Positions 11,635 through 56,774 of a stretch of DNA of 64,000 bases are shown one piece after another. The notes below the pieces were generated by a model that was not told where the DNA came from, did no database searches, and saw nothing but the letters and a program-made list of their open reading frames with translations. A program made the position numbers and the translations under genes. Source of the stretch: Candidatus Kaftiobacterium secundum (GTDB taxonomy: Bacteria > Sysuimicrobiota > Sysuimicrobiia > Sysuimicrobiales > Kaftiobacteriaceae); assembly GCA_031459765.1 (NCBI GenBank), contig JAVKHY010000002.1:257350-321349 (forward strand), in the 5' to 3' direction. Numbering within the stretch: the stretch's first letter is position 1; every line of letters begins with the position of its first letter.

Positions 11635-15225
<3,591 letters not shown>

Positions 15226-23461: not shown

Positions 23462-23585
23462 GGGGACCGCTTCCCTGGAGGCGGCCGGGGTCCGACCCAC
23501 CCCAGGCGGGAGGGGCCGGAAGACGGCCGAAGAGGAGAAGGCGGCGCGGGCGTCGGATAGCGTCACGTCCTCACGGAGGTGCGGC

Positions 23586-24008: not shown

Positions 24009-24024
24009 CCTCAGACGCGGCGGG

Positions 24025-27432: not shown

Positions 27433-28019
27433 CTCCGTCGCCACCGGACCAGGTTGTACAGGGCCAGCAGGGCCGTCGCCGCCGCACAGAGGAAGCCCCA
27501 GCTGAACATCGCGTAGGTGGAGAACTGCATCACCGTCCCCCTGCCGACAATCGCCGGCATGAAGGGGTCCACCCGAATGGGCGCGGCGGGATCGAGGGAG
27601 TGGCCGAAGGTCCACAACCAGTAGGCCAGATCGCCGACCACGCCCAGGGGAAAGACCACCGCCGGCGCCTGGAGCAGCGGGCCGAGCCGGCCCAGGAACG
27701 GCGAGGCGCCCACGGCCAGCACCCCGCCGAGGACGATCGGGACGGCCAGGCGGCGCTCCAGCGGCGCGGCCACCTCGAGAGGCTTCATCCCGATGTAGTG
27801 GTTGAGAATGCTGATCTCCGACGATTCGCCGGTCACTCGGGTCAGGTAGACTGAGGCGCGCAGGCCGCCCGGATACTGGGGGGCATACAGGGTGATCCGC
27901 CAGTAGGGGAGGATCAGCGACAGGCCCAGCAGCGCCGCCGCCACCCAGGAGCGGAGGTGAAGGCCCGTGGGGCGGCGGGCCTGCGCCAGTTCGCTCCGAA
28001 CGACGGCGAGTGTCACCAC
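27429..28019 (-). CDS. nosB: NosB-like transmembrane protein (clade-II nos hallmark)
   Basis: ~196 aa with 4-5 TM helices, immediately downstream of nosZ and overlapping nosD by 4 nt. Confidence 0.45.
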   Translation of the reverse strand: MVTLAVVRSELAQARRPTGLHLRSWVAAALLGLSLILPYWRITLYAPQYPGGLRASVYLTRVTGESSEISILNHYIGMKPLEVAAPLERRLAVPIVLGGVLAVGASPFLGRLGPLLQAPAVVFPLGVVGDLAYWLWTFGHSLDPAAPIRVDPFMPAIVGRGTVMQFSTYAMFSWGFLCAAATALLALYNLVRWRRR

Positions 28020-28080
28020 AGTTCGCGTCCTCCCGCCGAAGAAGATTCTGGACAGGGGGCCGGACTCCGGCCCCCTGCCG

Positions 28081-30057
28081 TCACGGCGCCACTTCCAGGT
28101 ACCCGGCCATCTCCAGGTGCAGCGCCGAGCAGAACTCGGTGCAGTAGAAGGGGAACACCCCGGGCTTATCCGCGACGAACTTCACCGTTTCGAACTTCCC
28201 GGGCTCCAGGCTCAGGTTGATGTTGTAGCGGTCGATGGCGAAGCCGTGGATCGCGTCCTTGGCCCGCTCGATGTTCGTGATGTGCAGAATCACGGTGTCC
28301 CCGCGCCTGACCTGGATGCGGTCCGGCGTGAAGTGGCTGCGCATCGCGGTCATCCAGACCTCGACGGTGGTGCCCTTACGCACGATGCGCTCCTTCCCGG
28401 CGCCTGTCGTGTTGGGGTCCACCTTCATGGTCAGAGGGTTGGTGCCGACCTCGGGGTAGACCGCCCAGGACTTCACCCTGTCCAGAGGGATGATCTGCGC
28501 CAGGTGCGGTTCGGCCAGCCCCACCGGGGTGTCGCTGAGGAGCACCATCTTCTCCCCGCTGATGTCGATGAGCTGGAGGTTCTGCGGGAACAGCGGGCCG
28601 ACGTTGCTGTACCGGTCCACCGACCACTTGTTCAGGGCTACCAGGTACCTGCCGCCCGGCTTCGCCGTATCCCCGGTCACCGCGGCCAGGTGCCCGATGT
28701 TGTAGTGCACGGGCAGCTTGTCCACGAGCTTCCAGGCCTCCCCGCCCTTCTTGTAGGGGGCGCCCAGCGTCCACTTGGCCACCGCGCTGTCCAGGAACAG
28801 GCTGGTGTAGGCGTTGCCCTTGTCATCGAACTGGGTGTGCAGCGGCCCCAGGCCGATCTTCACCTGCGCCTCGACGACCCGGTCGAAGGCCAGGATCGGC
28901 ACCCCGTAGGGGTCGGTCCCGCTGAAGGCCTTGTCCTTGATCGCCTGCTGGATCTTGCGGTGACTGTAGATGGTGACGTTGGGATCGAGCTTGCCGCCGA
29001 CGACGATGTAGTCTCCCCGCGGGGCGATGTCGTTCCCGTGCGGGCTCTTCGGCTCCGGCGCAAAATAGAGGACCCCGTTGGCCACCGCGTCCTTCAGGGA
29101 GAGGACCTTCATCCCGTTGACCACGGTCCCCCGGCCCTGGGCGATGAGCTGGGCGGCCTTCTTGTAGTGGATGATGTGCAGGTAGTCCATGTCCCGGGCC
29201 GAGGCCCCGATCTCCACCGGGGGCTGCTTGGCCAGGGTGCCGCCGATGGCGCGCTCCGTGTTGAAGGAGTTCATGTACACCCAGCCGTCGCTCTCGAACT
29301 TGCCGAAGTCGGCCAGGTCCTGCCAGTAGGGCGGGAGCTCGATCTGGAAGGACTGGGCCGGGTCGATGCGCCCCCGGGCGCGGTCGAACTTCCAGAAGGT
29401 GGCCAGGCCGCGGTAGTGCTGGTTGTAGTTCTCCTGGGTCAGCGGCACGTAGCGGAACGGGAAGGGGGCCGCGTACTGTGTGGCCTCCAGGACGTACTCG
29501 GTGTTGGGGCTGACCACCGCCCCGTGGTTGCTGGCGGCGTTGGGGTTGCGCACGATCTGCTTGGTGGAGAAGTCCCGCAGATCGATCACCGCCATCCGGG
29601 CGTTGGCCTTATCGTTGATGAACAGGAACTGGCCGTCGTACTCGGCGTTGGTCTCGCTGATCGCCGGGTGGTGCGTGTCCCCCCAGCTCAGGGCGTCGCG
29701 GAGCTCCGCCTGCTCGCGGAGGATCTCCGCCGTTTCCTTGCTGAAACCGTAGCCCTGCCAGGATTCGGGGCTGAAGACGCCGATCACGCGCAGGAGGCGC
29801 ATCGACGGCAACCCGAAGACCAGCACCTGCCCGGACTGCCCGCCGGAACTGAACATGAGGTAGTCGTCGTACTTGCCCGGCGGCACATAGGTCTGGACCG
29901 CGGCGCGGACCTGGTCGGGGGTCAGCCCCTTGGCCTTGATCAGTTGCTCCAGGCTCGGCGCCGTCGTGGCCGTGGACACCGTGAACCGCCCCCCCGCGGC
30001 CGCCAGGACCAGCAGGACCAGTGCCGCTCCTCCTGCCACCAGCCATCGTCTCCTCAT
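28081..30057 (-). CDS. nosZ: nitrous-oxide reductase NosZ
   Basis: 658 aa. C-terminal CuA motif FYCTEFCSALHLEMAG (Cx3Cx3Hx2M). Seven-bladed propeller region with the conserved His clusters expected for the CuZ site. N-terminal signal MRRRWLVAGGAALVLLVLAAA. RBS GGGGAGG. Confidence 0.9.
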   Translation of the reverse strand: MRRRWLVAGGAALVLLVLAAAGGRFTVSTATTAPSLEQLIKAKGLTPDQVRAAVQTYVPPGKYDDYLMFSSGGQSGQVLVFGLPSMRLLRVIGVFSPESWQGYGFSKETAEILREQAELRDALSWGDTHHPAISETNAEYDGQFLFINDKANARMAVIDLRDFSTKQIVRNPNAASNHGAVVSPNTEYVLEATQYAAPFPFRYVPLTQENYNQHYRGLATFWKFDRARGRIDPAQSFQIELPPYWQDLADFGKFESDGWVYMNSFNTERAIGGTLAKQPPVEIGASARDMDYLHIIHYKKAAQLIAQGRGTVVNGMKVLSLKDAVANGVLYFAPEPKSPHGNDIAPRGDYIVVGGKLDPNVTIYSHRKIQQAIKDKAFSGTDPYGVPILAFDRVVEAQVKIGLGPLHTQFDDKGNAYTSLFLDSAVAKWTLGAPYKKGGEAWKLVDKLPVHYNIGHLAAVTGDTAKPGGRYLVALNKWSVDRYSNVGPLFPQNLQLIDISGEKMVLLSDTPVGLAEPHLAQIIPLDRVKSWAVYPEVGTNPLTMKVDPNTTGAGKERIVRKGTTVEVWMTAMRSHFTPDRIQVRRGDTVILHITNIERAKDAIHGFAIDRYNINLSLEPGKFETVKFVADKPGVFPFYCTEFCSALHLEMAGYLEVAP

Positions 30058-30083
30058 GGTGACCTCCCCTCTCGAGATGCCGG

Positions 30084-30482
30084 TTACTTTACGACCAGCT
30101 GGATGTGCATGCCCGCTTCCTTATGGCCGGCCACCTTGCAGAAGATGGTGTACGTGCCGGGTTTGAGATCCACGGTGAGCGTGGTGGACTGTCCGGGGCG
30201 CAGCGCCTCGGTGCCCTTGTCCAGCCCCTCGATCAGGAAGTCGTGCTCCACGGTGCCCACGTTCTCGATCCGGAAGGTGACGGGGCCGGCGGAGACCTCC
30301 GTGGGCTGCATCTCGTACTTGAACTCGCTCATCTTCACCGTGACGGTCTGACCGGCCGCCGTGGGCGCGGCCGGGGGCTGCGCGGCCGGCGGGGTCGGCT
30401 GCTGGGCCGGCTGCTTTCCTCCGCAGGCCGCCGCCAGCAGGGCGACCATCACCATCAGGATCACCGCACCATACCTCACCAT
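30084..30482 (-). CDS. lipoprotein type-1 (blue) cupredoxin, likely electron donor to NosZ
   Basis: Lipobox LAAAC, Pro/Ala linker, cupredoxin fold with His...Cys-x4-His-x4-Met (EHDF...CKVAGHKEAGM). Immediately upstream of nosZ. Confidence 0.7.
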   Translation of the reverse strand: MVRYGAVILMVMVALLAAACGGKQPAQQPTPPAAQPPAAPTAAGQTVTVKMSEFKYEMQPTEVSAGPVTFRIENVGTVEHDFLIEGLDKGTEALRPGQSTTLTVDLKPGTYTIFCKVAGHKEAGMHIQLVVK

Positions 30483-34508: not shown

Positions 34509-35090
34509 GTGTCGATCCGCCGCCTCCGGCCCTGGCCGGTCACCGTCCTGCTCCTGACCGCTGCGGCGATTACTTTCGGGCTCTGGACGCGCAGCCCCCA
34601 GGCTCCGCGGGGTCCCGGCCCCGGCCCCGGTCCTGCGCCGGCCGTCCCGGCCCCCGCCGCCCGCCCGGCGCCGGAGTTCCGCCTGCGGGGATTCGACAAC
34701 CGGCTGATCGCCCTCTCCGACTACCGCGGGAAGATCGTGGTGCTGAACTTCTGGGCCTCGTGGTGCGCGCCGTGCCGGCAGGAGATGCCCAATCTCGAAC
34801 GCGTCTGGCGGGAGTTCCGCGCCCGGGGCGTGGTGGTGCTGGGCGTGGACGTGCTGGACGACCCCGACGAGGCCAGGGCGTTTGTGGAAGCGTTGCGGAT
34901 CACCTACCCCAACGTCTACGATCCCGAGCAGACCCGGATGACCGCCTACCGCGTCACCGGGCTGCCCACGACGATCTTCATCGACCGACGCGGGCGCATC
35001 CGCGGCCGGTTCGTCGGCGGCTACCTCGGCCCGGAGGGCCACGCCGCGCTTCGACGCCAGGTGCTCGAGTTGCTCTCCGAACCTCCCTAA
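34509..35090 (+). CDS. TlpA/ResA-like periplasmic thiol-disulfide oxidoreductase
   Basis: N-terminal TM, Pro-rich linker, thioredoxin fold with FWASWCAPC active site. Confidence 0.75.
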   Translation: MSIRRLRPWPVTVLLLTAAAITFGLWTRSPQAPRGPGPGPGPAPAVPAPAARPAPEFRLRGFDNRLIALSDYRGKIVVLNFWASWCAPCRQEMPNLERVWREFRARGVVVLGVDVLDDPDEARAFVEALRITYPNVYDPEQTRMTAYRVTGLPTTIFIDRRGRIRGRFVGGYLGPEGHAALRRQVLELLSEPP

Positions 35091-35137: not shown

Positions 35138-35536
35138 CTAGTTCACCGGCTTCAGCTGTGTCGTCGTGATACAGGTACGGTCCTTAGGAAAGGTGCTGAT
35201 GGTGTCCGTGCCCCGCAGAGACCCGAAGGCGAAGGTCACCACGTAGGTCTTGTTGGCGGGCAGCCACCACTCGATGAATCCGTCGGCCCCGGTGCGCGCG
35301 AGCCCGGCGCGGTTCACGGTGCCGTCGGTGGAGCGGAGCCAGAATCGGAGGGTGGTGTTCTTCAACTCGGCCTGGCAGGAGCCCTTGACGTGATAGGTGC
35401 AGGGATGTGTCGTCGTGATGTATGGGGCGACGGCCACATAGAATTCCTGCCCGGCCGTGGCCGGGACGGCGGGAAGAACGGTCACCAGCAGCAGACTCAG
35501 CGCTGCGGTCAACGCCAGACGGGTCATCGAAGGCAC
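35138..35536 (-). CDS. secreted hypothetical protein with Cys pair (HPCTYHVKGSC)
   Basis: Signal peptide plus ~105-aa beta-rich domain. No recognisable family. Co-directional, immediately downstream of hypE. Confidence 0.35.
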   Translation of the reverse strand: MPSMTRLALTAALSLLLVTVLPAVPATAGQEFYVAVAPYITTTHPCTYHVKGSCQAELKNTTLRFWLRSTDGTVNRAGLARTGADGFIEWWLPANKTYVVTFAFGSLRGTDTISTFPKDRTCITTTQLKPVN

Positions 35537-35706: not shown

Positions 35707-37851
<2,145 letters not shown>

Positions 37852-37855
<4 letters not shown>

Positions 37856-38130
37856 TGCCTTCCCGGCCCCTCCGGTCCTGGCTCCCGGACCTCCAGCTCC
37901 CGCAGCCCCTCGATTTCGGTGAGATATTCGAAGACCCGGGCCGCTTCGCGTTCGTCCACGACGGAGAGGGCCACGCCCACATGGACGATCACATAGTCGC
38001 CCACCCTCGCCTCCGGCACGAAGGCCAGGCTGACCTCTTTGACGATGCCGCCGAAATCCACCCGCCCGCGCCGCGTGAGCTCGCCGTCGTCGGCGATGGT
38101 GAGGATCCGGCCGGGGATGGCCAGGCACAT
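37852..38130 (-). CDS. hypC: [NiFe]-hydrogenase maturation chaperone HypC
   Basis: N-terminal MCLAIP motif, ~92 aa. Confidence 0.85.
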
Positions 38131-38135
38131 CGCCG

Positions 38136-40418
38136 CTACCCCCCCTCTCCCGCGGCCAGCGCCTGCCCGACGGCCAGTCCGCCGTCATTGGGCGGGACGC
38201 GCCGCGGGCAGAACACCGCGAAGCCGGCACGCCGCAGCTCCGCGGCCGCGGAGCGGACCAGCCGGGCGTTCTGAAAGCACCCGCCGCTGAGGACCACTTG
38301 CGATTCGTCCACCATCCGGGCAGCCAGGACGATCATCCGGGCCAGGGTGTTGTGGAACCGGGCGGCGATGGTCGACCGCGGCGTTCCGCAGCGGAGGTCG
38401 GCGAGAATTTCCTCAATCATCGGCCCCCAGTCCAGGACGGCCGGCGCCCCCAGGGGCGTCTGCACCGCGAAGGGGTAGATCCCGTCGTCGTCGCACCCGT
38501 ACGCGGCGTCCTCCACGGCGGCCGCCGCCTGCCCTTCGTAGCCGGCGCGCTGGCGCAGGTCGAGCAGCGAGGCCACAGCGTCGAAGAGCCGCCCGGCGCT
38601 GCTGGTCCGCGGCGTGTTGAGCCCGCCCCGTGATCCAGCCCCGCGCAGCAGCGCGGAGAAGATCCGTCGCTCGGCGGCGGAGCAGGCGCGGACCGGCGCC
38701 AGGTCGTCGCGGCCCCACACCCCGTCTCCGTATAGCTCATAGAGCATGCCGAGCGCCGCCCGCCGCGGTTCCCGGACCGCCGCCTCGCCGCCGGGGAGGC
38801 CGAAGGTCCGCAGGTGCGCCGTCCGCTCGCATCCGCGGCCGGTCAGGCGCAGAAACTCGCCGCCCCAGACCGTTCCGTCCGGCCCGTAGCCCGTCCCATC
38901 CCAGGCCACGCCGAAGACCGGCGGCCGCAGGCGGTGCTCGGCCATCACCGCCAGAAGATGCGCCTGATGATGCTGGACCGCATGCCGGGGCAGCCCGGAG
39001 GCCTCGGCGACCTGCGTAGAGGCGTAGTCGGGATGCAGGTCGCACACGACCTTTGTCGGGCGGAGGTCATAGAGGGTGGTCAGCGCCTCGAGCGTCCCAC
39101 GGTGGACCTGGCGGGAGCGGGCGCTGTCCAGGTCGCCCACATGCTGGCTCAGGATGATCTCGCCGCCGCGCGCCACGGCCACGGAGTTCTTCAGGTGCCC
39201 GCCGACGGCCACGAGCGGGGAGAGTTCGACTTCGATGGACAGGGACAGGGGGGCGTATCCCCGGGCGGCGCGCAGGACGACGGGCTCGCCGTCCATCACC
39301 CGCACCACGGAGTCGTCCACCGGCCGGGCGATGGGCCGGTCGTGGATGAGGAAGAGGTCGGCCACGCCGGCCAGGCGTGCGCACGCTTCGCCGTTGTCGG
39401 TGCAGATCGGTTCGTCGGAGAGGTTGCCGCTGGTGGCCACCACCGGAGTCTGCAGCTCCGCCATCAGGAGCACGTGCAGCGGCGTGTAGGGCAGCATGAT
39501 GCCCAGCGTGGCCCGGCCGGGCGCCACGGAAGGCGCAAGATCGTTGTCCGCCTCCGGCCGCCGACCCAGCAGCACGATCGGCGCCGCGGCCGAGGTGAGG
39601 AGGGCCTCCTCCGGCGGCGAGACGACGGCGTGGCGGACGGCCAGCTCGAGCGAGGGGTACATCAGGGCGAACGGTTTCTCCTCGCGTCCCTTGCGGGTCC
39701 GCAACCGCCGGACGGCATCCTCATTGCCTGCGTCCACGAGCAGCTGGAAGCCCCCGAGCCCCTTGAGCGCGACAATGAGGCCGTCCCGCACGGCCCGGGC
39801 GGCGATGTGAAGAGCCTGGTCGCCTTCGGCCAGGACGGCTCCGCCGGGGTCCCACAGCTCGAGGTGCGGACCGCAGGCCGGGCAGGCGATGGGCTCGGCG
39901 TGGAAGCGGCGGTTGCCGGGATCGTCATATTCCGCCCGGCACCGGGCGCACATCACGAAGGCCGCCATCGTGGTGCGCGCGCGGTCGTAGGGCAACGCCG
40001 TGATGATGGAGTATCGCGGCCCGCAGCGGGTGCAGTTGATAAAGGGGTAGCGGTAGCGGCGGTCGGCGGGGTCGCGGAGTTCGCGCAGACAGTCGGGACA
40101 GACGGCCAGATCCACGGGGACTACGACCGTCGGGGCGCCGTCGCGCTCGCTCGGGGCGATGACGAAGACGCCGTCCCCCACCGCCGGGACGACGGTGCGA
40201 TCGATCTCCAGGATGCGCGCGTGAGGCGGCGCCTCGCGTATCAGACGCTCGACGAACGCCTCCACAGACTCCGGCTGCCCCTCGACCTCGATGCGTACGC
40301 CGGCCGGACCGTTCCGCACCCATCCGGACAGGCCCAACTCGGTGGCCAGCCGATAGACAAAGGGGCGGAAGCCCACCCCCTGCACGGCCCCGCGGACGTC
40401 GAGCGCCAGCCGGGTCAT
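38136..40418 (-). CDS. hypF: carbamoyltransferase HypF
   Basis: Acylphosphatase domain (VQGVGFRPF), two Zn-finger CxxC...CxxC pairs, YrdC and Kae1-like carbamoyltransferase domains; 760 aa. Confidence 0.9.
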
Positions 40419-40678: not shown

Positions 40679-42040
40679 TCACACCGGCTCCTGTTGCACC
40701 GCAGCGGCCCGCCGGGCCCGCACCGTGGCCCAGGCCAGGCGGGCGACTAGGCGCGGGTCGACGGCCCGGAGGAAGATGCTGCGGTACGGCGCGCTGCCGG
40801 AGAACATGTCCCAGAGGACGCCGCTGAGCCGCGGGTCGCGGTCGCGGCCGGTTTGTTCCGCCGCCGTGGTATGGAGGACCGCTCCGCGGAGAAGGCGGAC
40901 GGTCTTCAGCAGCCCGGCGAGGAGGAACATCACCCGGCCGAAGCGGTTGTCCCAGGCGATGGAGCGGTAGACGGGTCCGAAGTGTCGGCGGAACGCCCGG
41001 GCCGAGATCCCATGGAACACCGCCGTCTGCGCGGCGGCCCGTGCGGTGCGGTAGGCGGCGCCGATGCCGTCCTTGTACAGCCTGGTCACACCGCAGTCCC
41101 CTACGAGGACGACCCGGTCGGCGAAGGGCCGGGCGGCCTCCCGCACGTTGATGTTGGGCCGGCAGTGGCAGACGCCTTCGTGGGACGTCCCGGGCGGCAG
41201 CCACCGGGTCACGGCCGGATGGGCGAAGAAGACCCGGATCAGCAGGTGGTCGATGTTGCGGCCGAGCAGGCAGACGGTCACGAAGTCGCCCTTGGGGATG
41301 ATGGCCGCAAACTCCAACCGGGGAATATCGAGGAGAAAGATGTGCATCGCGGCGCCGAAGATGCGCGTCACCGTTTCGAACCCGAGCCGGATCTCCGTGA
41401 TGTAGGCGCGGCTGGTTTCCGCCGGCCGGTGTCGCAGGCCGAGACCCGCGAAGAGCGGCTCGGAGGCCACGTTGACGCCGGTGGCGACGACGATGAGATC
41501 GTAGACCGTCGACGCTCCCCGCACCTGCAGCGACGGCCGTCCCCCCTGCCACCGGGCACCGGTGACGCGGGCGGGGATGACGCGGGCCCCCAGGCGCTGC
41601 GCCTCGGAGAGCAGGAAGCCGTCCAGCCCGCCCCAGCGCAGCACGCTCAGATCGCGCGGCCCGCCCCCGCGGTGGAGGGTCGCAATCCGTGCCTCACGCC
41701 GCGGGGTGCGGATTCTCACCGACCCCTCGTCGGTGTTCAGGACGTAGGCCGCGATGCCGCGCTGCACGACCGTGGCCGGGAGGTCGATCCCTTCCGCCGC
41801 CAAGCCTTGCACCAGCGCCTCGGAGACCACGCCCCCGCACATGTTGCACCCGCGAGGACCGGTCGCCGCGAAGTCTCTGGGTTCGTAGATGTCGACGGCC
41901 AGCCGGAGATTCTGCTGCTCGGCGAAACGGAGGAGGAAATACGCAGACAACGATCCGGCGGGGCCGCCCCCGATAACGGCGACGCGGCTCCCGTCCTGCA
42001 GGCGCATCGGCCCCCGGGCCGGAGGGGCTCTGGCGATCAT
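40679..42040 (-). CDS. FAD-dependent oxidoreductase (geranylgeranyl-reductase-like flavoprotein) with CNMCGG motif
   Basis: Rossmann VAVIGGGPAGS near the N-terminus; GDxG-like VLVGDCGV region. ATG at 42040 has RBS GGGGAGGA. Last gene of the cupredoxin/NrfCD block. Confidence 0.6.
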   Translation of the reverse strand: MIARAPPARGPMRLQDGSRVAVIGGGPAGSLSAYFLLRFAEQQNLRLAVDIYEPRDFAATGPRGCNMCGGVVSEALVQGLAAEGIDLPATVVQRGIAAYVLNTDEGSVRIRTPRREARIATLHRGGGPRDLSVLRWGGLDGFLLSEAQRLGARVIPARVTGARWQGGRPSLQVRGASTVYDLIVVATGVNVASEPLFAGLGLRHRPAETSRAYITEIRLGFETVTRIFGAAMHIFLLDIPRLEFAAIIPKGDFVTVCLLGRNIDHLLIRVFFAHPAVTRWLPPGTSHEGVCHCRPNINVREAARPFADRVVLVGDCGVTRLYKDGIGAAYRTARAAAQTAVFHGISARAFRRHFGPVYRSIAWDNRFGRVMFLLAGLLKTVRLLRGAVLHTTAAEQTGRDRDPRLSGVLWDMFSGSAPYRSIFLRAVDPRLVARLAWATVRARRAAAVQQEPV

Positions 42041-42131: not shown

Positions 42132-42665
42132 CTACGACGCCCGGCGAATGCCCATGAGCAATGCGACCAGGTAGGCGTACGTCGTCCAGATTCCGCCGAG
42201 CAGCACAGCAACGACCAGAATCTGGACAGGGGGATAGGGACTGATGAACCCCGGTTGCGGGCTCATCCCGCGAAGCACATCCAGTCCGGGGCGTCGCTGC
42301 GGATCCCGCACTCTGGGCGAGAGGAGCTGGAGGCCGGCCTGGAGGGTCGCGCTCTCGCCGGCGACCGCCCGCACCTCGGTGTAGCGCGGCGGGTCGTTCA
42401 GCGTGACGGACGCCGTCCCGGCGGCGTCCGCCTCCACCTCTGCCAGCTCCAGCCATCCGAAGGCCGTCCGGGCCAGGAACGTCACCGCCGTCCCGCCGGC
42501 GGGCGCTCCCGCGTCGTCCTGCACGGTAGCCACGACGCGCGTCGAGCCGTCGGCGCGGACCTCCTTGAGCAGTGAGATCCTGGCCGGCTCCGCCCCGTCC
42601 GCGGCGGAGGCGCCGCCCGCGACGAGCAACAGGCCCAGGACCGCGAGGCTACGGAACAGGCGCAT
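42132..42665 (-). CDS. exported protein with C-terminal membrane anchor, unknown function
   Basis: Signal peptide, Ala/Gly-rich ~120-aa domain, terminal TM (ILVVAVLLGGIWTTYAYLVALLMGI). Overlaps the 3' end of the nrfD-like gene by 17 nt. Confidence 0.35.
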   Translation of the reverse strand: MRLFRSLAVLGLLLVAGGASAADGAEPARISLLKEVRADGSTRVVATVQDDAGAPAGGTAVTFLARTAFGWLELAEVEADAAGTASVTLNDPPRYTEVRAVAGESATLQAGLQLLSPRVRDPQRRPGLDVLRGMSPQPGFISPYPPVQILVVAVLLGGIWTTYAYLVALLMGIRRAS

Positions 42666-44217
42666 GCGCCACCTCTCCGGCACTGGCCTCAGTCCCCCGC
42701 TCTTCCCGCGTCTCCCAGATCGAGACGATCGGGAACAGTTTGCTGAACAGGATGTAAATGAGTGCAAAGCCCGCCAGGGCCGCCGCCGTGATCGACCACT
42801 CCACCCACGTCGGCCGGTAGACCGCCCAGCCCACTGGAGCACGCCGGATCGGTAAGAACGGATACTGAAGGGTGGGCACGATGATGACGAAGCGCTTCAG
42901 CCAGGCTCCGACGTTGACCAGGAGCGAGGCCACGACCGCGGCCGCGATCGGGCGCGCTCGGAAAAACGGCAGCAGCGCGACAAAGAGCCAGATGCCAGCG
43001 GCGGTCAACACCCACGGCAGCAGCGCACGCAGGGCGGCGACGTCGCCCAGGGCCGCGGCGGGCGACCCCGAGGACGAGACGAAGACGCGCAGGCCGAGGG
43101 TGGCGGCCAGCGCGGCCAGCGCCGGTCTGGGCTGAAGCAGGGGGGCGCTCTGCAGGCGCGGCACCCAGGAGATCGTCGGCAGTGTGAGGAGCAGCACGGG
43201 GACCAGCAGTCCGCCGATCTGTGTAAACCAGAAGATGCGCGCATAGGGCCCGCTGACCACCGCGCTCAGGTAGCCGCGCTCGTGTGTCGCCAGTTTGTAC
43301 AGCGGCGTCCAGTACTCGTTGAAGGTGAAGTAGGCGTAGATCAGGCCCAGCGCGATAAGAAGATAGCCCATCCGCTTGAAGTGGCGCACCGTAATGTAGT
43401 CCTCCAGATGGTACGCCCACCGGAAGGCGGCCATCGCGGTGATCACGGCGGCTGCGCCGCTGAACAAGGCCCCCGAGACGAAGTACGGCCCGAAGATCGT
43501 ACTGTTCCATCCCGCGCGCAGCGTCATCGCCATGATCCAGGACACCACCGTGTGCACCGAGATCGCCACGGGGATGATCAGCACCGCCAGCACGCCGATG
43601 ATCGTTTCCAACTGGTGCTTCTGCCCGGGCGTCCCGCGCCACCCTAGGGCCAGGATCGTGTACAATCGCCGCCGCCACGCCGGCCCCCGCGCATAGTGCT
43701 CCCGCAGCAGCGCGATGTCCGGGATCATGGGCACGTACAGGAACAGCGTGCTGCCGGTCAGGTACGTCGTGATCGACATGATGTCCCACAGGATGGGCGA
43801 CTGCAGCCGGCCGTGCAGGAGGAGATTCAGGATGCGGTCCGGCCGCCCCATGTCCACGAAGGGCATCAGCGCTCCCATCAGCAGCGAGGCGAAGGTAATC
43901 GCCTCGGCCATCCGCGTGATCGGCCGCCGCCACTCCGCCCCGGTGAGGCGCAGGATGGCGGACATCAGCGCACCGACGTGGCTGACGCCGATGAAAAAGA
44001 CGAAGTTGGTGATGTAGACGCCCCACATGAAATTGTCGCGCAGCCCGGTCACGCCCAGCCCGTAACGCAGCTGCACGCCGTAGGCGATGAGCCCCCAGAG
44101 GATGATGGCCACGAGCCCGCCGACCAGCGCGTAGTAGCGCGGGCCGGTCGCCTGCAGCGAGTCGAGCAGGCGCTGCTCGCGAGGTGCGAACGCCTGACGG
44201 CGGCGCCCGTCGATCAC
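42649..44217 (-). CDS. NrfD/PsrC-family polytopic membrane subunit (quinol-interacting), ~12 TM
   Basis: 522 aa with ~12 hydrophobic helices typical of NrfD/PsrC/ActC-type quinol oxidoreductase subunits. GTG start overlaps the stop of the FeS gene (GTGA). Confidence 0.7.
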   Translation of the reverse strand: MIDGRRRQAFAPREQRLLDSLQATGPRYYALVGGLVAIILWGLIAYGVQLRYGLGVTGLRDNFMWGVYITNFVFFIGVSHVGALMSAILRLTGAEWRRPITRMAEAITFASLLMGALMPFVDMGRPDRILNLLLHGRLQSPILWDIMSITTYLTGSTLFLYVPMIPDIALLREHYARGPAWRRRLYTILALGWRGTPGQKHQLETIIGVLAVLIIPVAISVHTVVSWIMAMTLRAGWNSTIFGPYFVSGALFSGAAAVITAMAAFRWAYHLEDYITVRHFKRMGYLLIALGLIYAYFTFNEYWTPLYKLATHERGYLSAVVSGPYARIFWFTQIGGLLVPVLLLTLPTISWVPRLQSAPLLQPRPALAALAATLGLRVFVSSSGSPAAALGDVAALRALLPWVLTAAGIWLFVALLPFFRARPIAAAVVASLLVNVGAWLKRFVIIVPTLQYPFLPIRRAPVGWAVYRPTWVEWSITAAALAGFALIYILFSKLFPIVSIWETREERGTEASAGEVAHAPVP

Positions 44218-45146
44218 GGGTGGACCCCCCTGGTCGCCGGCTGCGGCTCATCCGGCGGCGCCGGATAGACCCGCTTGCGCGGCGGCAGGTAGTATACGCG
44301 CGGCTCGGTGCCCAGCTCTTCCAGGAACCGATAACCGGCGTTCTGGCGGATCAGCTCGGAAAACCGCACCGTCTCCCCCTGGGAGTTGGTTACGGCATCC
44401 TCCTCCTGGTCGCCGAAGTAGATGGCGCCCATCGGACAGGCCGCCACACAGGCCGGCAGCCTTCCCTCTTTGACGAGCCCCGGACAGAAGATGCACTTCT
44501 CGGTGGTGCCCTTGCGGTGGCGTTGGTTCCATTCGTCGGAGTACGGGAGGCTCTGCTGCGCCTCGGTCTCGGGCGGCTGGACCCAGTTGAAACTCCGTGC
44601 CCCGTACGGACAGGCGGCGATGCAGAAGCGGCAGCCGATGCAGCGCGAGGTGTCCTGCATCACGATCCCGTCCTCGCGCTTCCAGGCCGCGCTGACCGGA
44701 CAGACCTTGACGCACGGCGCGTTGTCGCACTGCATGCAGGGCCGGGGAAACCAGTACGGGGCGGCGACCTCATTGTCCCGCAGCTCGTAGACGCGGATCC
44801 ACTCCTGCCCGGCGGGGGTGAAGTGCATCCCCTGGCAGGCACGGGTGCACTCCCGGCACCCGTCGCACCTGGCGAGGTCGATAACCATCACCCACCGCCG
44901 CCCCGGGATGCCCGGCCCCGTGGGCTGCGGGGGCGATGCGGCGTAGGCCACCGCTGCCGCCCCGGCCCCGCCGGTCAGACCGTTCAGCTCGACCAGCGTG
45001 CGGTCCACCGTGGGCGCGGCGACGAGCGCGGGCACCGGCGACCTTCGGCCAAGGGGCAGGCGGCGGAGGAAGCGGCCGCCGCCCAGCGGGACGAGGGTCG
45101 CGGCGCCCGCCGCCAGCGTCCGCAGGAAGGTCCGCCGGGTGAGCAT
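44214..45146 (-). CDS. TAT-exported 4Fe-4S cluster protein, NrfC/PsrB/ActB-like
   Basis: Twin-arginine signal MLTRRTFLRTLAAGAATLVP. Four ferredoxin-type Cys motifs (CDGCRECTRAC, CMQCDNAPC, CIGCRFCIAACP, CIFCPG...CVAACP). No CxxCH. Confidence 0.75.
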   Translation of the reverse strand: MLTRRTFLRTLAAGAATLVPLGGGRFLRRLPLGRRSPVPALVAAPTVDRTLVELNGLTGGAGAAAVAYAASPPQPTGPGIPGRRWVMVIDLARCDGCRECTRACQGMHFTPAGQEWIRVYELRDNEVAAPYWFPRPCMQCDNAPCVKVCPVSAAWKREDGIVMQDTSRCIGCRFCIAACPYGARSFNWVQPPETEAQQSLPYSDEWNQRHRKGTTEKCIFCPGLVKEGRLPACVAACPMGAIYFGDQEEDAVTNSQGETVRFSELIRQNAGYRFLEELGTEPRVYYLPPRKRVYPAPPDEPQPATRGVHP

Positions 45147-45150
45147 GGGC

Positions 45151-45600
45151 TCACCGGCCGGGCAGGACGACGAACTGCCCGATCTGATCGGGATGATCCC
45201 GGGCGCATCCGGCCAGAGTGCACGCATAGTGGTAGATGCCGGGCCGGGCGGCCACAAACCGCAGCGTAACGGTCTCCCCCGGCGCGATGGTCGGAACGGC
45301 GACGTTCAACGCCCCCAGACCGAAGCCGTGGGAATCCTCCTCGTCGGTGTTGGTGACCCGCAGGATGACGGTGTCGCCGGCGTTGACGACAATCACATCG
45401 GGTATCCAGTGGTGGACTTTCCGCTCGCCCGCCTCGAAGGAGTGCAGGTAGAGGCCGACCTGCCGGACCTCGGGCGTGACCGGCGCCGTGGCCGAGACCG
45501 GAGGCACGTAAATCTGGAAGACGACATACGCGCCCCCGATGGCCAGCAGCGCGGCGAGCAGGACCGCCCCGAAGATCGTCCATCCGCCGCTATTCATCAC
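45151..45600 (-). CDS. membrane-anchored CuA-like cupredoxin (paralog A; axial Gln variant)
   Basis: N-terminal TM, cupredoxin strands (IPDVIVVNAGDTVILRVTN), upstream His (SHGF), then C-x4-C-x3-H-x2-Q (CTLAGCARDHPDQ). Confidence 0.5.
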   Translation of the reverse strand: MMNSGGWTIFGAVLLAALLAIGGAYVVFQIYVPPVSATAPVTPEVRQVGLYLHSFEAGERKVHHWIPDVIVVNAGDTVILRVTNTDEEDSHGFGLGALNVAVPTIAPGETVTLRFVAARPGIYHYACTLAGCARDHPDQIGQFVVLPGR

Positions 45601-46073
45601 TTCACCACGACCACGCCCTTCATGCCCTGCTCGTAGTGGCCTTCCACCATGCAGCCCATCTCAAAGGTGCCGGTGCGCCTGGGGGTGAACGTCAGCTCGG
45701 CCGACCGGCCGGGGCCGACCTCCACCTCGAAGATCTCCTCCCCTTCGACGGCAATGCCGCCACCTTCCACCTCGACCTCAACCCCCTTGAAGTACGAGTG
45801 CTCCTCCGCCCAGGCGTGCATCTCGCTCTCGTCCATCTTGCCCGCGGGCGTGTCGTAAACCATGAACTCGTGCTTGACCTTGCCCTTGTTGAGGAGCGTA
45901 ATCTGCGTCTTGGTCCCGGCCTGCAGCGTGACCCTGGCGGGAGTGAAGCTCATCTCGCGCAGGGTGATGGTCAGCTTCTGCGCCTTCGCCGCGCCCAGCG
46001 CGCTGCCCACCGGCAGCGTCGCCAGAAGCACGGTCACCGCCAGGAGACCCGTCCACCACCGCATCGTCCTCAC
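45597..46073 (-). CDS. secreted type-1 cupredoxin (paralog of the gene at 30084-30482)
   Basis: Signal peptide, His (KHEF), then C-x4-H-x4-M (CMVEGHYEQGM). C-terminal region aligns with the nosZ-adjacent cupredoxin (TFEMGCMVEGHYEQGMKGVVVVK vs TIFCKVAGHKEAGMHIQLVVK). Confidence 0.65.
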   Translation of the reverse strand: MRTMRWWTGLLAVTVLLATLPVGSALGAAKAQKLTITLREMSFTPARVTLQAGTKTQITLLNKGKVKHEFMVYDTPAGKMDESEMHAWAEEHSYFKGVEVEVEGGGIAVEGEEIFEVEVGPGRSAELTFTPRRTGTFEMGCMVEGHYEQGMKGVVVVK

Positions 46074-46225: not shown

Positions 46226-46867
46226 TCAGCCGGGATCCTCCGGCAGCAACCCCCGGCGCGCCGCGTAGGCGATGACCTCGGCGCGGCTGCGGAGGTGGAG
46301 CTTGTCCAGGATGTTCTTCATGTGGAACTTGACGGTGTTCTCCGAAATGTGCAGGGCCGCGGCCACCTCGCGGTTGCTGGCCCCCCGGCTCACGGCCTGC
46401 AGCACCTCGCGCTCCCGGTCGGTCAGCGCCTCCGGAGGTGGCGCCTGCGGCTGCTGTCCGGCGAACTCCTCGAGGATCCGCGCGGCGAGGGTGCGGGTGA
46501 TCGGCGCCTCCCCGCGCTCCACCCCGCTCAACAGGTCGAAGAACTCCCCGGCCCGGAGGTTCTTGAGCAGGTAGCCCTGTGCTCCGCTCTTGATCGCTTC
46601 GAACACCATCCGGTCTTCATCGGAAACGGTGAGCATGACGATCTTGATTTGCGGGGCCTGGGCCTTGATCAGCCGCGTTGCCTCGAGGCCGCTCATGCGT
46701 GGCATGGCGATGTCCATGAGCACGACATCCGGGCGCAGGCGCAGCGCCGCCTCCACCGCCTGCAGGCCGTCGCCGGCCTCGCCCACGACCTCCACTCCCC
46801 GCGTGGCCAGCAGGCTGCGCACCCCGTCGCGGAAGAGGGCGTGATCGTCAACCAGCAGCACGCGCAC
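46226..46867 (-). CDS. NarL/FixJ-family response regulator (REC + LuxR HTH)
   Basis: MRVLLVDDH...DVVLMDIAMP receiver and C-terminal LTDREREVL...NISENTVKFH LuxR-type HTH. Confidence 0.85.
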   Translation of the reverse strand: MRVLLVDDHALFRDGVRSLLATRGVEVVGEAGDGLQAVEAALRLRPDVVLMDIAMPRMSGLEATRLIKAQAPQIKIVMLTVSDEDRMVFEAIKSGAQGYLLKNLRAGEFFDLLSGVERGEAPITRTLAARILEEFAGQQPQAPPPEALTDREREVLQAVSRGASNREVAAALHISENTVKFHMKNILDKLHLRSRAEVIAYAARRGLLPEDPG

Positions 46868-48626
46868 GCCGGCCCTCCTCCATTCCCGGGAGCACCACCT
46901 CGACGACGGTGCCTCCGCCAGCTCGGACGCCGACGGTCATCGTGCCGCCGATGGCTTCCGCCCGCTCCCGCATCGTCTGCAAGCCGAACCCTGCGGTCGG
47001 GGGCGCGGCCTTCCCGCCAATCCCCACGCCGTCGTCTTCCACGGCGACCACAATCGCCCCGCCCCGCGCCGCCAGCCGGACCACCGCGTGGCGCGCTGCG
47101 GCGTGCTTGCGGACGTTGGTCAACGCCTCCTGGACGATGCGAATGAGGTGGACTTCCGTCGTGGGCGGGAATTCGACCTCGTCGATCTCGACGACGAGCC
47201 GGGTGTCGACGCCGCTGAGCTCGGTGAACCGCCGGGTGTAATCGGCCAGGACCGGAATCAGGCGGCGATCCGGCCCCGTGGTGGTGCGCAGGCTCAGGAT
47301 GGCTTCCCGCAGGTCGGCGTAGACCGAGCGCGCAGCCAGCTCCAGCTCCTCCAGGTGGGCCAGGGCCTCCGGGATCTGGCCCTGGCTCACCAGCGCATGG
47401 ACCGCCTGCACCTTGGTGTTTACGTAGCCCAGCACCTGCCCGACGCTGTCGTGCATCTCCCGGGCAATACGCTCCCGTTCCTCCACCATGGCCACGGATC
47501 GCAGGCGCTCCTGCAGACGGGCGTTCTCCTCCAGGGAGCGGAGCAGCCGGAGGCGCATCGTCTCGAAGCTCTGGCCGAGCGCGCCGAGCTCGTCCCCCCG
47601 ACGCACCTCGATGCGCTGCGCCAGATCGCCTGCGGCGATACGCTCCGCCCCCCGCTGCAGGAGCCGCAGCGGGGCCACCACCGCTCCGGTGTCGAGCCAG
47701 GCGAAGAGCAGGGCCACGGCGAGCACGACGACCTCAAAGAGGAGGACGCGGTCGCGCAGACGCCAGAGCGGGCCAAAGGTTTCGGCCTCACTCTGTCCGA
47801 TCCCAAGCCCCCACGGCGCCGACGCCAGGGGCGCAAAGGCCATGAGGTGAAGGGGACTGCGGCCCTTCGGCTCACGCCGCTCCTCGCTCGCCCCCACCAG
47901 CGGCCGGCCCTCGGCGATCAAGCGGGCAAAAAAGTCGGGATGCTCGTTCCGGGAGAACACCTCATCAGGGTCGGTCCCGGCAAGTACGATGCCGTCCGGG
48001 CCCACGAGGACGGCATGGCCGGTTTCCCCGATGGGCAATCCCCTGATAAACGTGAACAGCGCCGGTGTGGTGAGGTCGATCGCCCCGAGCAATGCTCCGG
48101 CGATCCACTGCGGACCGTCGAAGACTGGCACGGCGAAGAAGACCACAGGCCTGCCGTCGGCCCGCCGGATGAGGCTGCTCGCCTGCGGCCGGCCCGAAGT
48201 CAGCACCTGCTGCAGCAGGGGGGAGCGCGCCAGAGGCTCGAACAGGACCGCCTCCTCCGGTTCGGCGACCCGGATCTTCGATCCTCGATCGAGGTAGGCG
48301 ATCCCCCCGGAGAACAGCGGCATCTGCAGGTAGGAGACCGCCAGCTCGCGCCGGAGGGCCCGGAAGTCGGACCGCGCCAGGTGCGGGCTGAGGCGCGCGC
48401 TCAACCCGTTCAGGGACCGCCAGCCCTGGGCCAGTTCCTGATCGATGTGTTCGGCGGTGGTGCGCGCCATGACCAGGCGTTCGGCCAGCACCCGGTCGGT
48501 CGCGGCCCGCACCATCGCCAGACCCATCACCCCCAGCGGGGCGGTGGCGACGAGCACCCCCAGCGCCACGAGGAGCATGATGCGGTTGCGCAATCCCACC
48601 GCGACCACCACCCTCGCAGACATCAT
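46848..48626 (-). CDS. sensor histidine kinase (periplasmic Cache-like domain, HAMP, HisKA_3, HATPase)
   Basis: Two TM segments flanking a ~270-aa periplasmic domain. HAMP (IAAGDLAQRIEV), HisKA_3 H-box (REMHDSVGQ), and a C-terminal HATPase region with the conserved catalytic Asn and Gly-rich motifs. 20-nt overlap with the response regulator. Confidence 0.8.
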   Translation of the reverse strand: MMSARVVVAVGLRNRIMLLVALGVLVATAPLGVMGLAMVRAATDRVLAERLVMARTTAEHIDQELAQGWRSLNGLSARLSPHLARSDFRALRRELAVSYLQMPLFSGGIAYLDRGSKIRVAEPEEAVLFEPLARSPLLQQVLTSGRPQASSLIRRADGRPVVFFAVPVFDGPQWIAGALLGAIDLTTPALFTFIRGLPIGETGHAVLVGPDGIVLAGTDPDEVFSRNEHPDFFARLIAEGRPLVGASEERREPKGRSPLHLMAFAPLASAPWGLGIGQSEAETFGPLWRLRDRVLLFEVVVLAVALLFAWLDTGAVVAPLRLLQRGAERIAAGDLAQRIEVRRGDELGALGQSFETMRLRLLRSLEENARLQERLRSVAMVEERERIAREMHDSVGQVLGYVNTKVQAVHALVSQGQIPEALAHLEELELAARSVYADLREAILSLRTTTGPDRRLIPVLADYTRRFTELSGVDTRLVVEIDEVEFPPTTEVHLIRIVQEALTNVRKHAAARHAVVRLAARGGAIVVAVEDDGVGIGGKAAPPTAGFGLQTMRERAEAIGGTMTVGVRAGGGTVVEVVLPGMEEGRRARAAG

Positions 48627-49076
48627 CTAGCGCGGCGGCGCGTCGAGGACGACCAGGTGCCCGATCATTCGCTCATGGTCCGGCGAGCAGGACCCGGCGG
48701 CCGGGTCGTAGGGCAGATAGCACCGGTATTCGAAGATCCCCGCGCGGTCCGCGCGGAAGGTCACCTCATCCACGTCCCCGCCGGCCAGGACCTTCGTGCG
48801 GACGTTGAGGCCCCTGAACTCGATGGCGTGGCTGAACAGAGACTGGTTCATCACGCGCAGGCGGACCGTGTCGCCCCGGCGCACGACGAGCATCTGGGGA
48901 TCATAGAGGTGGCTGGTGGCCGGGCCGCCGATGCCCCCCTGCCCGGTGATGAGCATCGCCAGGTCGATGGTCGGGGCGCCGGAGGGGCGCCGTTCCGCCG
49001 GGCGAAGCGCGAACAGACCGACCGCGATCGCCGCCGCCGACACCATCGTCGCCGTCCACGCGACCATCTTGCTCAT
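48627..49076 (-). CDS. membrane-anchored CuA-like cupredoxin (paralog B)
   Basis: N-terminal TM; upstream His (SHAIEF); C-x10-C-x3-H-x2-M (CYLPYDPAAGSCSPDHERM), i.e. the CuA ligand set with an expanded Cys-Cys loop. Abuts the histidine kinase start with zero gap. Confidence 0.5.
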   Translation of the reverse strand: MSKMVAWTATMVSAAAIAVGLFALRPAERRPSGAPTIDLAMLITGQGGIGGPATSHLYDPQMLVVRRGDTVRLRVMNQSLFSHAIEFRGLNVRTKVLAGGDVDEVTFRADRAGIFEYRCYLPYDPAAGSCSPDHERMIGHLVVLDAPPR

Positions 49077-49080
49077 CCCG

Positions 49081-49518
49081 TCACTCCGTGACGAGGAGAT
49101 AGCCGCGCATCAGATCGTGATCGGGCGTGCAGTCGCCCGTGGCGGGGTTGTGGGGCAGTGCGCACCGGAAGAGAAACACCCCCGTCCGGTCGGCGACGAA
49201 ACGCAGAGACCGGCTGCTGCCCGGCCTGAGTTTCCCGGTCCTGAGGTTGTACCCCGTCAGTTCGAAGTCGTGGTTGTACCTGTCGGGGTTGCCGACGGCG
49301 AGATCGACGGTGTCCCCGCGGCGCACGACGAGCATCGTCGGGTACCAGCGGTGGGCGGCCACCCCCTGCCCCGAGAAGGTGGCGACAACCATGGACAGGG
49401 TCAGCGTGGCGGGGGGCCGGGGGCCGACCGCCTCGGGCGGACCCTGTCCCCGTCCGGCCAGGGCCGCCACACTGACGACCAGCGCCAGGACGCTCAGGAC
49501 GAGGGCGATCCGCTCCAT
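49081..49518 (-). CDS. membrane-anchored CuA-like cupredoxin (paralog C)
   Basis: Collinear with paralog B (MLVVRRGDTVxL...FRxDRxG(I/V)F(E/L)(Y/F)RC.LP..PA.G.C.PDH..M). First gene of the block. Confidence 0.5.
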   Translation of the reverse strand: MERIALVLSVLALVVSVAALAGRGQGPPEAVGPRPPATLTLSMVVATFSGQGVAAHRWYPTMLVVRRGDTVDLAVGNPDRYNHDFELTGYNLRTGKLRPGSSRSLRFVADRTGVFLFRCALPHNPATGDCTPDHDLMRGYLLVTE

Positions 49519-56150: not shown

Positions 56151-56774
56151 ATGGCAGACGTCTCTGGCATCATCCTGGCCGGGGGACGGAGCCGCCGCCT
56201 GGGCCGGGACAAGCGCGACGTCATCGTGGGCGGCGTGGCGCTGCTGGATCGGGCCGTAGCCCTGTGCGCGCCGCTCGTCGACGGGCTCCTGATCGTGGCC
56301 CGCGAGGCCGGTCCGCCCCGCCGCGGCGTCCCCGTCGTCGCCGACGAGATATCCGATCGCGGGCCGATGGCCGGCGTGCTGACCGGCCTGCGCCGCAGCC
56401 GGCACCCCAGGATGCTGGTCATCCCGGTGGACATGCCGCTGCTGACGGCGGAGTTTCTGCGCTTTCTGATCCGGATCGCCCCCGAGGCCGAGATCACCGT
56501 CCCCAGGTGGGAGCGGGGGATCGAACCGCTCGTCGCGGTCTACACGCGGTCCTGTCTCGGCCCGCTCGCCGACGCCCTGGCCCGCGGCGCGACCGCCCTG
56601 CACGCCTTCATCCAGTCCGCGGGCCGCTCCGTGCGGTTCGTGGACGCCTCGGAGATCGCACCCTTCGGCCGGCCGGAACGGCTGTTCTTCAACATCAACA
56701 CGGCGGAGGAGGTCGCCGCGGCGGAGGCGATGCTGGCGGAGGAGATCAGGCCTTCGCGATCTGCACCGCCGTGA
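56151..56774 (+). CDS. mobA: molybdenum-cofactor guanylyltransferase
   Basis: N-terminal GIILAGGRSRRLG..DK motif, ~207 aa. Confidence 0.75.
   Translation: MADVSGIILAGGRSRRLGRDKRDVIVGGVALLDRAVALCAPLVDGLLIVAREAGPPRRGVPVVADEISDRGPMAGVLTGLRRSRHPRMLVIPVDMPLLTAEFLRFLIRIAPEAEITVPRWERGIEPLVAVYTRSCLGPLADALARGATALHAFIQSAGRSVRFVDASEIAPFGRPERLFFNINTAEEVAAAEAMLAEEIRPSRSAPP

Follow-up and report, generated by a model that had tools for sequence, protein, structure and literature searches.

A CuA-type cupredoxin with a Gln-containing metal-binding loop in a conserved NrfC-NrfD gene cassette of Sysuimicrobiota

INTRODUCTION

To our knowledge, CuA centres are known only from the PmoD dimer and as the sites at which haem-copper oxidases, NosZ, and one NO reductase take up electrons. 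Here we describe a gene for a small membrane-anchored cupredoxin, referred to below as the target, in a 64,000-nucleotide (nt) stretch of DNA from Candidatus Kaftiobacterium secundum (Sysuimicrobiota; contig JAVKHY010000002.1); this whole stretch, with a GC content of 70.6%, is called the window, and all coordinates are positions in it. Judged by its sequence and its structural model, the target is a CuA-type membrane-anchored copper protein whose metal-binding loop is unusual. It is part of a conserved cassette that also encodes a type 1 (T1) cupredoxin, an iron-sulfur (FeS) protein of the NrfC type, and an integral membrane protein of the NrfD family.

The closest described counterparts of the target are the CuA domains of NosZ and of subunit II (COX2) of the ba3 oxidase. 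Its axial Gln is shared with stellacyanin-type sites and with engineered Met-to-Gln variants of CuA; however, stellacyanin is mononuclear and has one Cys, whereas the target has two invariant Cys residues, and the Gln-CuA variants known to us were made in the laboratory, whereas in the target family Gln occurs naturally and is conserved. The cassette as a whole invites comparison with the NosGH-NosC1C2 module of Wolinella succinogenes and with alternative complex III (ACIII), which in Chloroflexus uses auracyanin, a blue-copper carrier. The canonical CuA motif is Hx34Cx3Cx3Hx2M, and the cupredoxin-like protein PmoD, found outside oxidases and NosZ, forms an atypical CuA from a homodimer with a non-canonical motif (PMC6189053). 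The target resembles PmoD in both location outside these enzymes and possession of a non-canonical CuA-like motif, but PmoD lacks the H...C...C...H...M arrangement on one chain, whereas the target keeps all of these positions on one chain.

RESULTS AND DISCUSSION

An intact gene for a membrane-anchored cupredoxin

The open reading frame (ORF) of the target (Table 1) can start with a GTG at 45600, giving 149 residues, or with an ATG at 45597, giving 148 residues. Its GC content at third codon positions is 0.87, like that of other coding frames in the window. The 148-residue form is 100% identical to a protein (P0001) from the Armatimonadota metagenome-assembled genome (MAG) GCA_031081605.1, labelled "cupredoxin domain-containing protein" in the database, and identical copies are found on 16 contigs in public databases. 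Homologues fall into 67 clusters, nearly all with proteins 146-150 residues long. The intact ORF, the identical proteins on 16 contigs, and the invariant ligands in the 67 clusters rule out a pseudogene or an artefact.

The original prediction, made from the DNA alone, had assigned this ORF a transmembrane (TM) anchor and cupredoxin strands, and both are seen in the AlphaFold2 model as a TM helix and a beta-sandwich. It had also proposed that two nearby paralogues, B and C, share this architecture, and indeed all three proteins consist of a TM anchor and a cupredoxin domain. After the TM helix, an alignment of 25 orthologues contains a near-invariant linker, PPxSATAPVTPEVRQ, which suggests a subunit docked at a fixed surface rather than one that is loosely tethered.

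Likeness to CuA domains

A family profile searched against all PDB sequences matched the CuA domain of NosZ (1qni, 1fwx, and 2iwf; E about 4e-11) and COX2 of the ba3 and aa3 oxidases. In this alignment HGF falls on HGF and Y-x-C-tlag-C-aad-H-ad-Q on Y-Y-C-nwf-C-hal-H-me-M of NosZ, so that H91, C127, C132, H136, and Q139 are all in register with the His, Cys, Cys, His, and Met of NosZ, with a single gap between the two Cys residues. The same register was obtained when the target was compared by BLASTP with the window's own NosZ (37% identity over 86 residues, E 6e-15). The AlphaFold2 model has a mean predicted local distance difference test score of 90.2, with values of 94-97 across residues 121-140, and its top Foldseek matches in PDB are NosZ CuA domains, ba3 subunit II, and soluble CuA constructs; the match to 1fwx shows 31% identity and a root mean square deviation of 2.9 A over 105 columns. 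Of the features that characterize CuA, a cupredoxin fold and two His and two Cys ligand positions in register on one chain are found in the target, and the C-x3-H-x2-X spacing is identical. As in ba3 subunit II, a single N-terminal TM helix precedes the domain. Unlike NosZ and ba3 COX2, the target is a stand-alone protein without a catalytic partner domain or an adjacent COX1 gene; it has an x4 rather than x3 spacing between the Cys residues, an axial Gln rather than Met, and an invariant Asp before the second His, and it scores under all curated family cut-offs.

Several family assignments were tried and rejected. The target scores 13.2 with the COX2 model PF00116 (cut-off 22) and 23.8 with TIGR02866 (cut-off 147.7), and its neighbours are FeS and NrfD genes, not COX1. 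It matches the NosZ model TIGR04246 at model positions 495-576 only, with 54.7 bits against a cut-off of 625 and without a match to the seven-bladed propeller that carries CuZ. Scores for nitrosocyanin and NirK were far under the curated cut-offs, and the matches were limited to the cupredoxin domain. A type 1 (stellacyanin-like) cupredoxin, in which the site is mononuclear with a single Cys, is not among the assignments rejected; the target has two invariant Cys residues, and the nearest folds are CuA domains.

Metal-binding loop and ligand conservation

The full motif of the target is Hx35Cx4Cx3Hx2Q; the spacing between the first His and the first Cys is thus x35, against x34 in the canonical motif. 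The loop C-x4-C-x3-H-x2-Q and the upstream His, both named in the original prediction, are read directly from the translation. Among 25 aligned orthologues, H91, C127, C132, D135, and H136 are invariant and Q139 is at least 90% conserved; the motif is therefore not a chance one. Loop type was compared in 29 distinct orthologous loci with a complete loop: 28 have x4 with Gln, and one has x4 with Met. The C-x3-C spacing of CuA is not found, as the target and all orthologues have C-x4-C and the paralogues have C-x10-C, and the axial Met is replaced by Gln139 in all but that one locus. One orthologue (P0056) departs from the family exactly at the metal loop (CTLEVAGVRGRRDPVGPCDLRS) and looks frameshifted, either through an assembly error or as a decayed copy.

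The placement of Gln at the axial Met position, also part of the original prediction, agrees with the profile and BLASTP alignments to NosZ, both of which put Q139 on the axial Met column. The best argument at hand that Gln139 would serve as a ligand is that the spacing from C132 to the axial residue is identical to that in CuA. An axial Gln lowers the reduction potential in stellacyanin and in Met-to-Gln mutants of type 1 and CuA sites. By analogy with this general cupredoxin behaviour, Gln139 would lower the potential of the target.

CuA-like loops in the wider family

When 1.84 billion representative proteins were searched exhaustively with the profile, 4206 matched at E<=1e-3, and loops were classified in the best 150 of these 4206. 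In that set, C-x3-C loops have an axial Met in 100 cases, Gln in 6, His in 2, and Ile in 2; C-x4-C loops have Gln in 12 and Met in 3; C-x10-C loops have Met in 8, Gln in 6, and Ile in 2; and C-x12-C loops have Gln in 2 and Met in 1. The axial column is limited to residues that occur at copper axial positions, the spectrum expected of an axial copper ligand. Judging from these loops, Gln-type CuA-like sites recur in nature, and the combination of x4 and Gln defines the target's own family. The x4 and x10/12 families both have an Asp in front of the second His (C-[AST]-x-D-H), whereas classical loops read C-G-x-G-H. The distant members P0078 (x4, Gln) and P0085 (x4, Met) also stand before NrfC-NrfD genes.

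Some relatives carry more than one CuA-like domain. Two or three such domains are found in P0076, P0079, P0081, P0083, P0087, and P0089, and P0084 is a tandem Gln-type CuA protein whose gene has unannotated neighbours. P0077 (L051 566-3683), a protein of 427 residues, has tandem CuA-like domains with C-x3-C-x3-H-x2-M twice; its gene immediately precedes those for a Rieske protein and cytochrome b, the position that cytochrome c1 would take. The contig looks archaeal and carries an eRF1 gene close by.

A conserved cassette of copper, FeS, and NrfD proteins

Gene order was compared in 52 fetched loci, which represent 31 distinct cassettes; the denominators below are distinct loci. The gene next to the target on the downstream side encodes the NrfC-like FeS protein in 25/26 loci, and the gene directly upstream encodes a T1 cupredoxin, also in 25/26. 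The NrfD protein (~520 residues) is present in all 18 loci, and a protein with an immunoglobulin-like domain and a C-terminal TM helix (Ig-TM) is the conserved last gene of the cassette (14/14). The order in many loci is paralogue C, paralogue B, T1, target, NrfC, NrfD, Ig-TM, with paralogue B directly upstream of the T1 gene, and the cassette genes overlap or stand 4 nt apart, with the target coupled translationally to the FeS protein and the ActC-like membrane protein. The window departs from this order only by a dCache kinase and a NarL-type regulator between paralogue B and the T1 gene. The original prediction had the target immediately before the NrfC-like gene with a gap of 5 nt; the adjacency and the tight coupling of the two genes stand, and the gap is 4 nt (the stop ends at 45151 and the ATG is at 45146), as it is in locus L001 (10447/10452).

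The T1 cupredoxin of the cassette is probably a mobile electron carrier. In an Anaerolineae MAG a c-type cytochrome of 285 residues replaces it; going by gene content, the upstream carrier is interchangeable and can be a T1 cupredoxin or a cytochrome c. The axial ligand of the cassette T1 protein varies: the loop is C-x4-H-x4-Met in the window and C-x4-H-x4-Gln in several genomes (L004, L006, L007, L011, and L021 were examined).

Table 1. Features of the cassette and the nos cluster in the window
Feature	Position	Strand	Remarks
Target, membrane-anchored CuA-like cupredoxin	45151..45600	(-)	148/149 aa; TM helix at residues 4-31, linker, cupredoxin domain
Metal-binding loop of target, C127-TLAG-C132-ARD-H136-PD-Q139	45184..45222	(-)	Translation CTLAGCARDHPDQ, i.e. 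C-x4-C-x3-H-x2-Q
His91 codon of target	45328..45330	(-)	Upstream His ligand position, invariant HGF; from translation and alignment
T1 cupredoxin of cassette	45597..46073	(-)	Secreted; H68, C141-x4-H146-x4-M151; stop overlaps target start
Two-component system	46226..48626	(-)	dCache_1-HAMP-HisKA_3 kinase, 46848-48626; NarL/GerE-type regulator, 46226-46867
Paralogue B, TM-anchored CuA-like cupredoxin	48627..49076	(-)	C-x10-C-x3-H-x2-M
Paralogue C, TM-anchored CuA-like cupredoxin	49081..49518	(-)	C-x10-C-x3-H-x2-M
NrfC/DsrO/ActB-C-terminal-type FeS protein	44214..45146	(-)	310 aa; Tat-exported; four Cys4 motifs
NrfD-family integral membrane subunit	42649..44217	(-)	522 aa; closest to ACIII ActC; presumed quinol site
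Ig-TM protein	42132..42665	(-)	177 aa; signal peptide, Ig-like (Big_1) domain, C-terminal TM helix
DAO/geranylgeranyl-reductase-like flavoprotein	40679..42040	(-)	Adjacent in some loci only; association loose
nos cluster	22763-30482		Crp/Fnr regulator, NosY, NosF, NosD, 196-aa three-TM protein, NosZ, lipoprotein T1 cupredoxin
Sec-type (clade II) NosZ	28081..30057	(-)	Candidate acceptor; Sec-dependent equivalog model, 837 bits (cut-off 625)
Lipoprotein T1 cupredoxin of nos cluster	30084..30482	(-)	Candidate acceptor

Relationship to alternative complex III

In alignments, the FeS protein matches PsrB, ArrB, and the FeS half of ActB (ActB residues about 776-1023 only). The sole PDB matches of the NrfD protein are the ActC subunits of four organisms (6btm_C, 6lod_C, 8k9e_C, and 6f0k_C; E 2.7e-58 to 9.4e-56), and this affinity points to a general complex-III-like role. 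Like ACIII, the cassette combines an ActC-like NrfD subunit, a periplasmic Tat-exported FeS subunit similar to the C-terminal half of ActB, and small accessory subunits with a single TM helix; it can adjoin aa3 oxidase genes, and its carrier would be a blue-copper protein, as is that of ACIII in Chloroflexus. Unlike ACIII, it has neither the pentahaem ActA nor the monohaem ActE, and three CuA-like proteins and a T1 cupredoxin are found instead. No CXXCH haem-c motif occurs in the ~52 likely genes of the window, including those of the cassette and the nos cluster. The NrfD protein also contains an inserted stretch of some 80 residues (at roughly 340-420) that the solved ActC structures lack.

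Several genomes (L006, L008, L011, L016/L020, L021, L030, and L032) encode, close to the cassette, a further NrfC-NrfD pair that is more divergent. This pair follows the Ig-TM gene except in L006 and L021, where it precedes the cassette. A molybdopterin oxidoreductase of 1068 residues is encoded after the second pair in the locus from Anaerolineae.

The nos cluster and other genomic contexts

The two T1 cupredoxins and the NosZ that the original prediction reported are all present in the window. The nos cluster contains no genes for NosGH, NosR, NosX, or cytochrome c, and is without its own quinol dehydrogenase; its 196-residue membrane protein has no family match. The cluster lies 15 kb from the cassette, separated from it by genes for Usp, Nramp, ArsR, a TlpA/ResA-like thioredoxin, CueP, and hypFCDE. 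In the 52 fetched loci, phmmer searches with the window's NosZ, NosD, NosF, and NosY found no nosZ within 10 kb of any other distinct cassette; the "NosZ" hits in L017, L018, and L045-L047 are matches to the cupredoxin domain in unrelated distant homologues. A conserved linkage to nosZ is therefore ruled out, as nosZ stands beside no other cassette in these loci. In GCA_964489355.1, the cassette directly follows COX2-COX1-COX4-COX3, an aa3 oxidase operon. The lineage is that of CSP1-3/Sysuimicrobiota, and one of the cassette loci comes from Ca. Calidihabitans tengchongensis. In CSP1-3, coxABC is reported to be ancestral, whereas nosZ, with a patchy distribution, and nirK are reported to have been acquired horizontally (PMC11604079).

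The cassette shares with the NosGH-NosC1C2 module an NrfC-like and NrfD-like pair, small one-electron carriers that are periplasmic or anchored in the membrane, and a genome that encodes clade II NosZ. However, compared with that module, the carriers of the cassette are copper proteins rather than cytochromes c, and the cassette lies outside the nos cluster and is unlinked to nosZ in other genomes.

Between the nos cluster and the cassette, a membrane thioredoxin similar to TlpA and ResA (34509-35090, plus strand) adjoins the periplasmic copper-binding protein CueP (35138-35536, minus strand). In Bradyrhizobium, copper is inserted into CoxB after TlpA has reduced its CuA cysteines, and by analogy this pair could take part in the maturation of the many CuA-like sites. 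The same interval holds hypE, hypD, hypC, and hypF (35707-40418), with no hydrogenase structural genes identified beside them. Other large genes of the window (11635-15225, 6126-8837, and 56746-59610) encode pyruvate:ferredoxin oxidoreductase, aconitase, and a molybdopterin protein similar to NuoG and formate dehydrogenase; the last carries 2Fe-2S and 4Fe-4S domains.

Proposed function and alternative explanations

From sequence comparison and the structural model, we propose with moderate confidence that the target is the periplasm-facing CuA-type subunit of a conserved, haem-free quinol:cupredoxin oxidoreductase related to ACIII. Quinol would be oxidized at the ActC-like NrfD subunit, and electrons would travel along the four FeS clusters in the NrfC-like, Tat-exported subunit to the Gln-ligated, predicted binuclear copper centre of the target, possibly also via the C-x10-C paralogues B and C. 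They would leave on the secreted T1 cupredoxin for terminal enzymes that accept electrons from copper proteins, with the aa3 oxidase, NosZ (in this genome), or NirK as predicted acceptors. By lowering the potential of its site, Gln139 would place the target between the FeS chain and the blue-copper carrier; these relative potentials, like the contacts between subunits, are predictions of the model. The conserved synteny fits a role in electron transfer that the target would share with the FeS subunit, the other CuA-like proteins, and the T1 cupredoxin. The carrier logic follows from three observations: a cytochrome c can replace the T1 protein, a cassette follows COX genes, and P0077 occupies the position of cytochrome c1.

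Several points weigh against this proposal, and some of them are also differences from ACIII. The residues of the quinol site in R. marinus ActC are H139, D169, and D253 (PMC8076601), and the aligned residues in the NrfD protein are Asp, Asp, and Ile; with D169 alone kept and two of the three named residues different, the quinol chemistry may differ. The FeS subunit lacks the molybdopterin-like half of ActB, as its alignment covers the FeS half alone, and no second NrfD protein (ActF) is encoded in the window. The best named relative of the T1 cupredoxin, although far under the cut-off, is the copper-resistance protein CopI. Sequence is compatible with electron flow in either direction, and the C-x4-C spacing, which lies outside every characterized CuA, may not support a binuclear site with a Cu2S2 core.

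The last two points lead to alternatives that keep much of the machinery. The same complex might transfer electrons through a site that is not binuclear, either a mononuclear type 1, green, or red copper centre with a second thiolate or a redox-active Cys pair. Neither C-x4-C nor C-x10/12-C is known in characterized CuA, in which the canonical spacing between the Cys residues is x3 (Hx34Cx3Cx3Hx2M; PMC6189053), C132-x3-H-x2-Q alone would be a workable type 1 loop, and the best NCBIfam match of paralogue B, far under its cut-off, is the red-copper mononuclear protein nitrosocyanin. However, both Cys residues are invariant along with both His residues, the loop downstream of the second Cys is wholly in the CuA register, the closest folds are CuA domains and not type 1 proteins, and the nearest large group of relatives is the classical C-x3-C...M proteins; we regard such a site as unlikely, though with some real weight. 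Electrons might also flow in reverse, from a donor in the periplasm or outside the cell (candidates are sulfur compounds, Fe(II), and H2-derived carriers) through the cupredoxins to the quinone pool, as part of a lithotrophic metabolism or of reverse electron transport. CSP1-3 bacteria have been described as chemoautotrophic on H2 or sulfide (PMC11604079), SQR-like and DsrEFH genes lie upstream in one locus and rhodanese and sulfur-carrier genes near another, and a low-potential Gln-ligated copper would aid uphill transfer. On the other hand, cupredoxin potentials are normally well above those of quinones, the cassette adjoins an aa3 oxidase operon in one genome, a tandem-CuA relative takes the cytochrome c1 position in a Rieske/cytochrome b cluster, and ACIII, the closest structural relative, is a quinol oxidase. 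Reverse flow thus appears quite unlikely.

The original prediction envisaged a potential ladder from the FeS subunit to NosZ, in effect a dedicated chain and a copper analogue of NosGH-NosC1C2. Its general part, electron transfer involving FeS, CuA-like, and T1 proteins, fits the conserved synteny; its specific aim at NosZ is not supported in the form proposed. The genes for the clade II NosZ, which scores over the equivalog cut-off (837 bits), for NosDFY, and for a lipoprotein cupredoxin share the orientation of the cassette and lie 15 kb from it, in a cluster without NosGH, NosR, or cytochrome c, and the target is most similar to NosZ CuA domains. Yet unrelated genes separate the two clusters here, nosZ is within 10 kb of the cassette in no other distinct locus, one cassette follows COX2-COX1-COX4-COX3, and each cluster has its own kind of regulator, Crp/Fnr for nos and the dCache kinase with the NarL-type regulator for the cassette. 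Moreover, nosZ in CSP1-3 is reported to be patchy and horizontally acquired, whereas coxABC is reported to be ancestral (PMC11604079), and we find a chain dedicated to NosZ decidedly improbable. That the system serves periplasmic copper homeostasis, with the CopI-like and other cupredoxins binding or oxidizing Cu(I) and passing electrons to the membrane, is hardly likely at all. The match of the T1 cupredoxin to CopI is nearly full length (E 1e-17, 64 bits), CueP, CopC, and VKOR genes lie near some loci, and a dedicated two-component system is linked to the cassette; but the CopI score is far under the cut-off of 280, these copper-gene neighbours are not conserved, a cytochrome c replaces the T1 gene in one locus, and a quinol subunit of the ActC kind combined with four FeS clusters is respiratory machinery.

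Beyond the oxidoreductase that we propose for this locus, a broader idea can be put forward more tentatively, as a possibility that we do not yet favour. CSP1-3/Armatimonadota-type bacteria and some Chloroflexota may run an all-copper equivalent of complex III, with no haem, in which three natural CuA-type centres with non-canonical loops (C-x4-C with axial Gln, C-x10-C with Met), together with a blue-copper carrier, would link an ActC-like quinol oxidase and its FeS subunit to their acceptors, and stand-alone or tandem CuA proteins may widely replace cytochrome c1 and ActA as the subunit through which electrons leave quinol-oxidizing complexes. The wider use of CuA proteins as exit subunits is hinted at by the tandem-CuA gene beside the Rieske and cytochrome b genes.

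Implications

Neither the cassette nor a natural Gln-ligated CuA is described in the literature that we found by full-text searches. A review of NrfD complexes names no copper-containing NrfD complex (PMC8076601), and the paper on CSP1-3 does not mention complex III, NrfD, or cupredoxins (PMC11604079). Taken singly, the CuA-type cupredoxin and the ACIII-like NrfCD module belong to known kinds; it is their combination and the ligand loop that are new. The operon is conserved and undescribed, and it looks like a complex III substitute with copper centres in place of haem.

If this is true, free-standing CuA-like subunits on an NrfCD/ActC-type quinol module would constitute a new middle of the respiratory chain, and would explain how quinol is linked to the aa3 oxidase and NosZ in a widespread uncultivated phylum without visible cytochromes c. 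The finding also bears on the genome-based prediction of N2O-reducing capacity, because this nos cluster does not include an electron-donor module. Finally, members of this family can show in natural proteins how a CuA site is tuned by loop length and by an axial Gln, so far studied only in engineered proteins.

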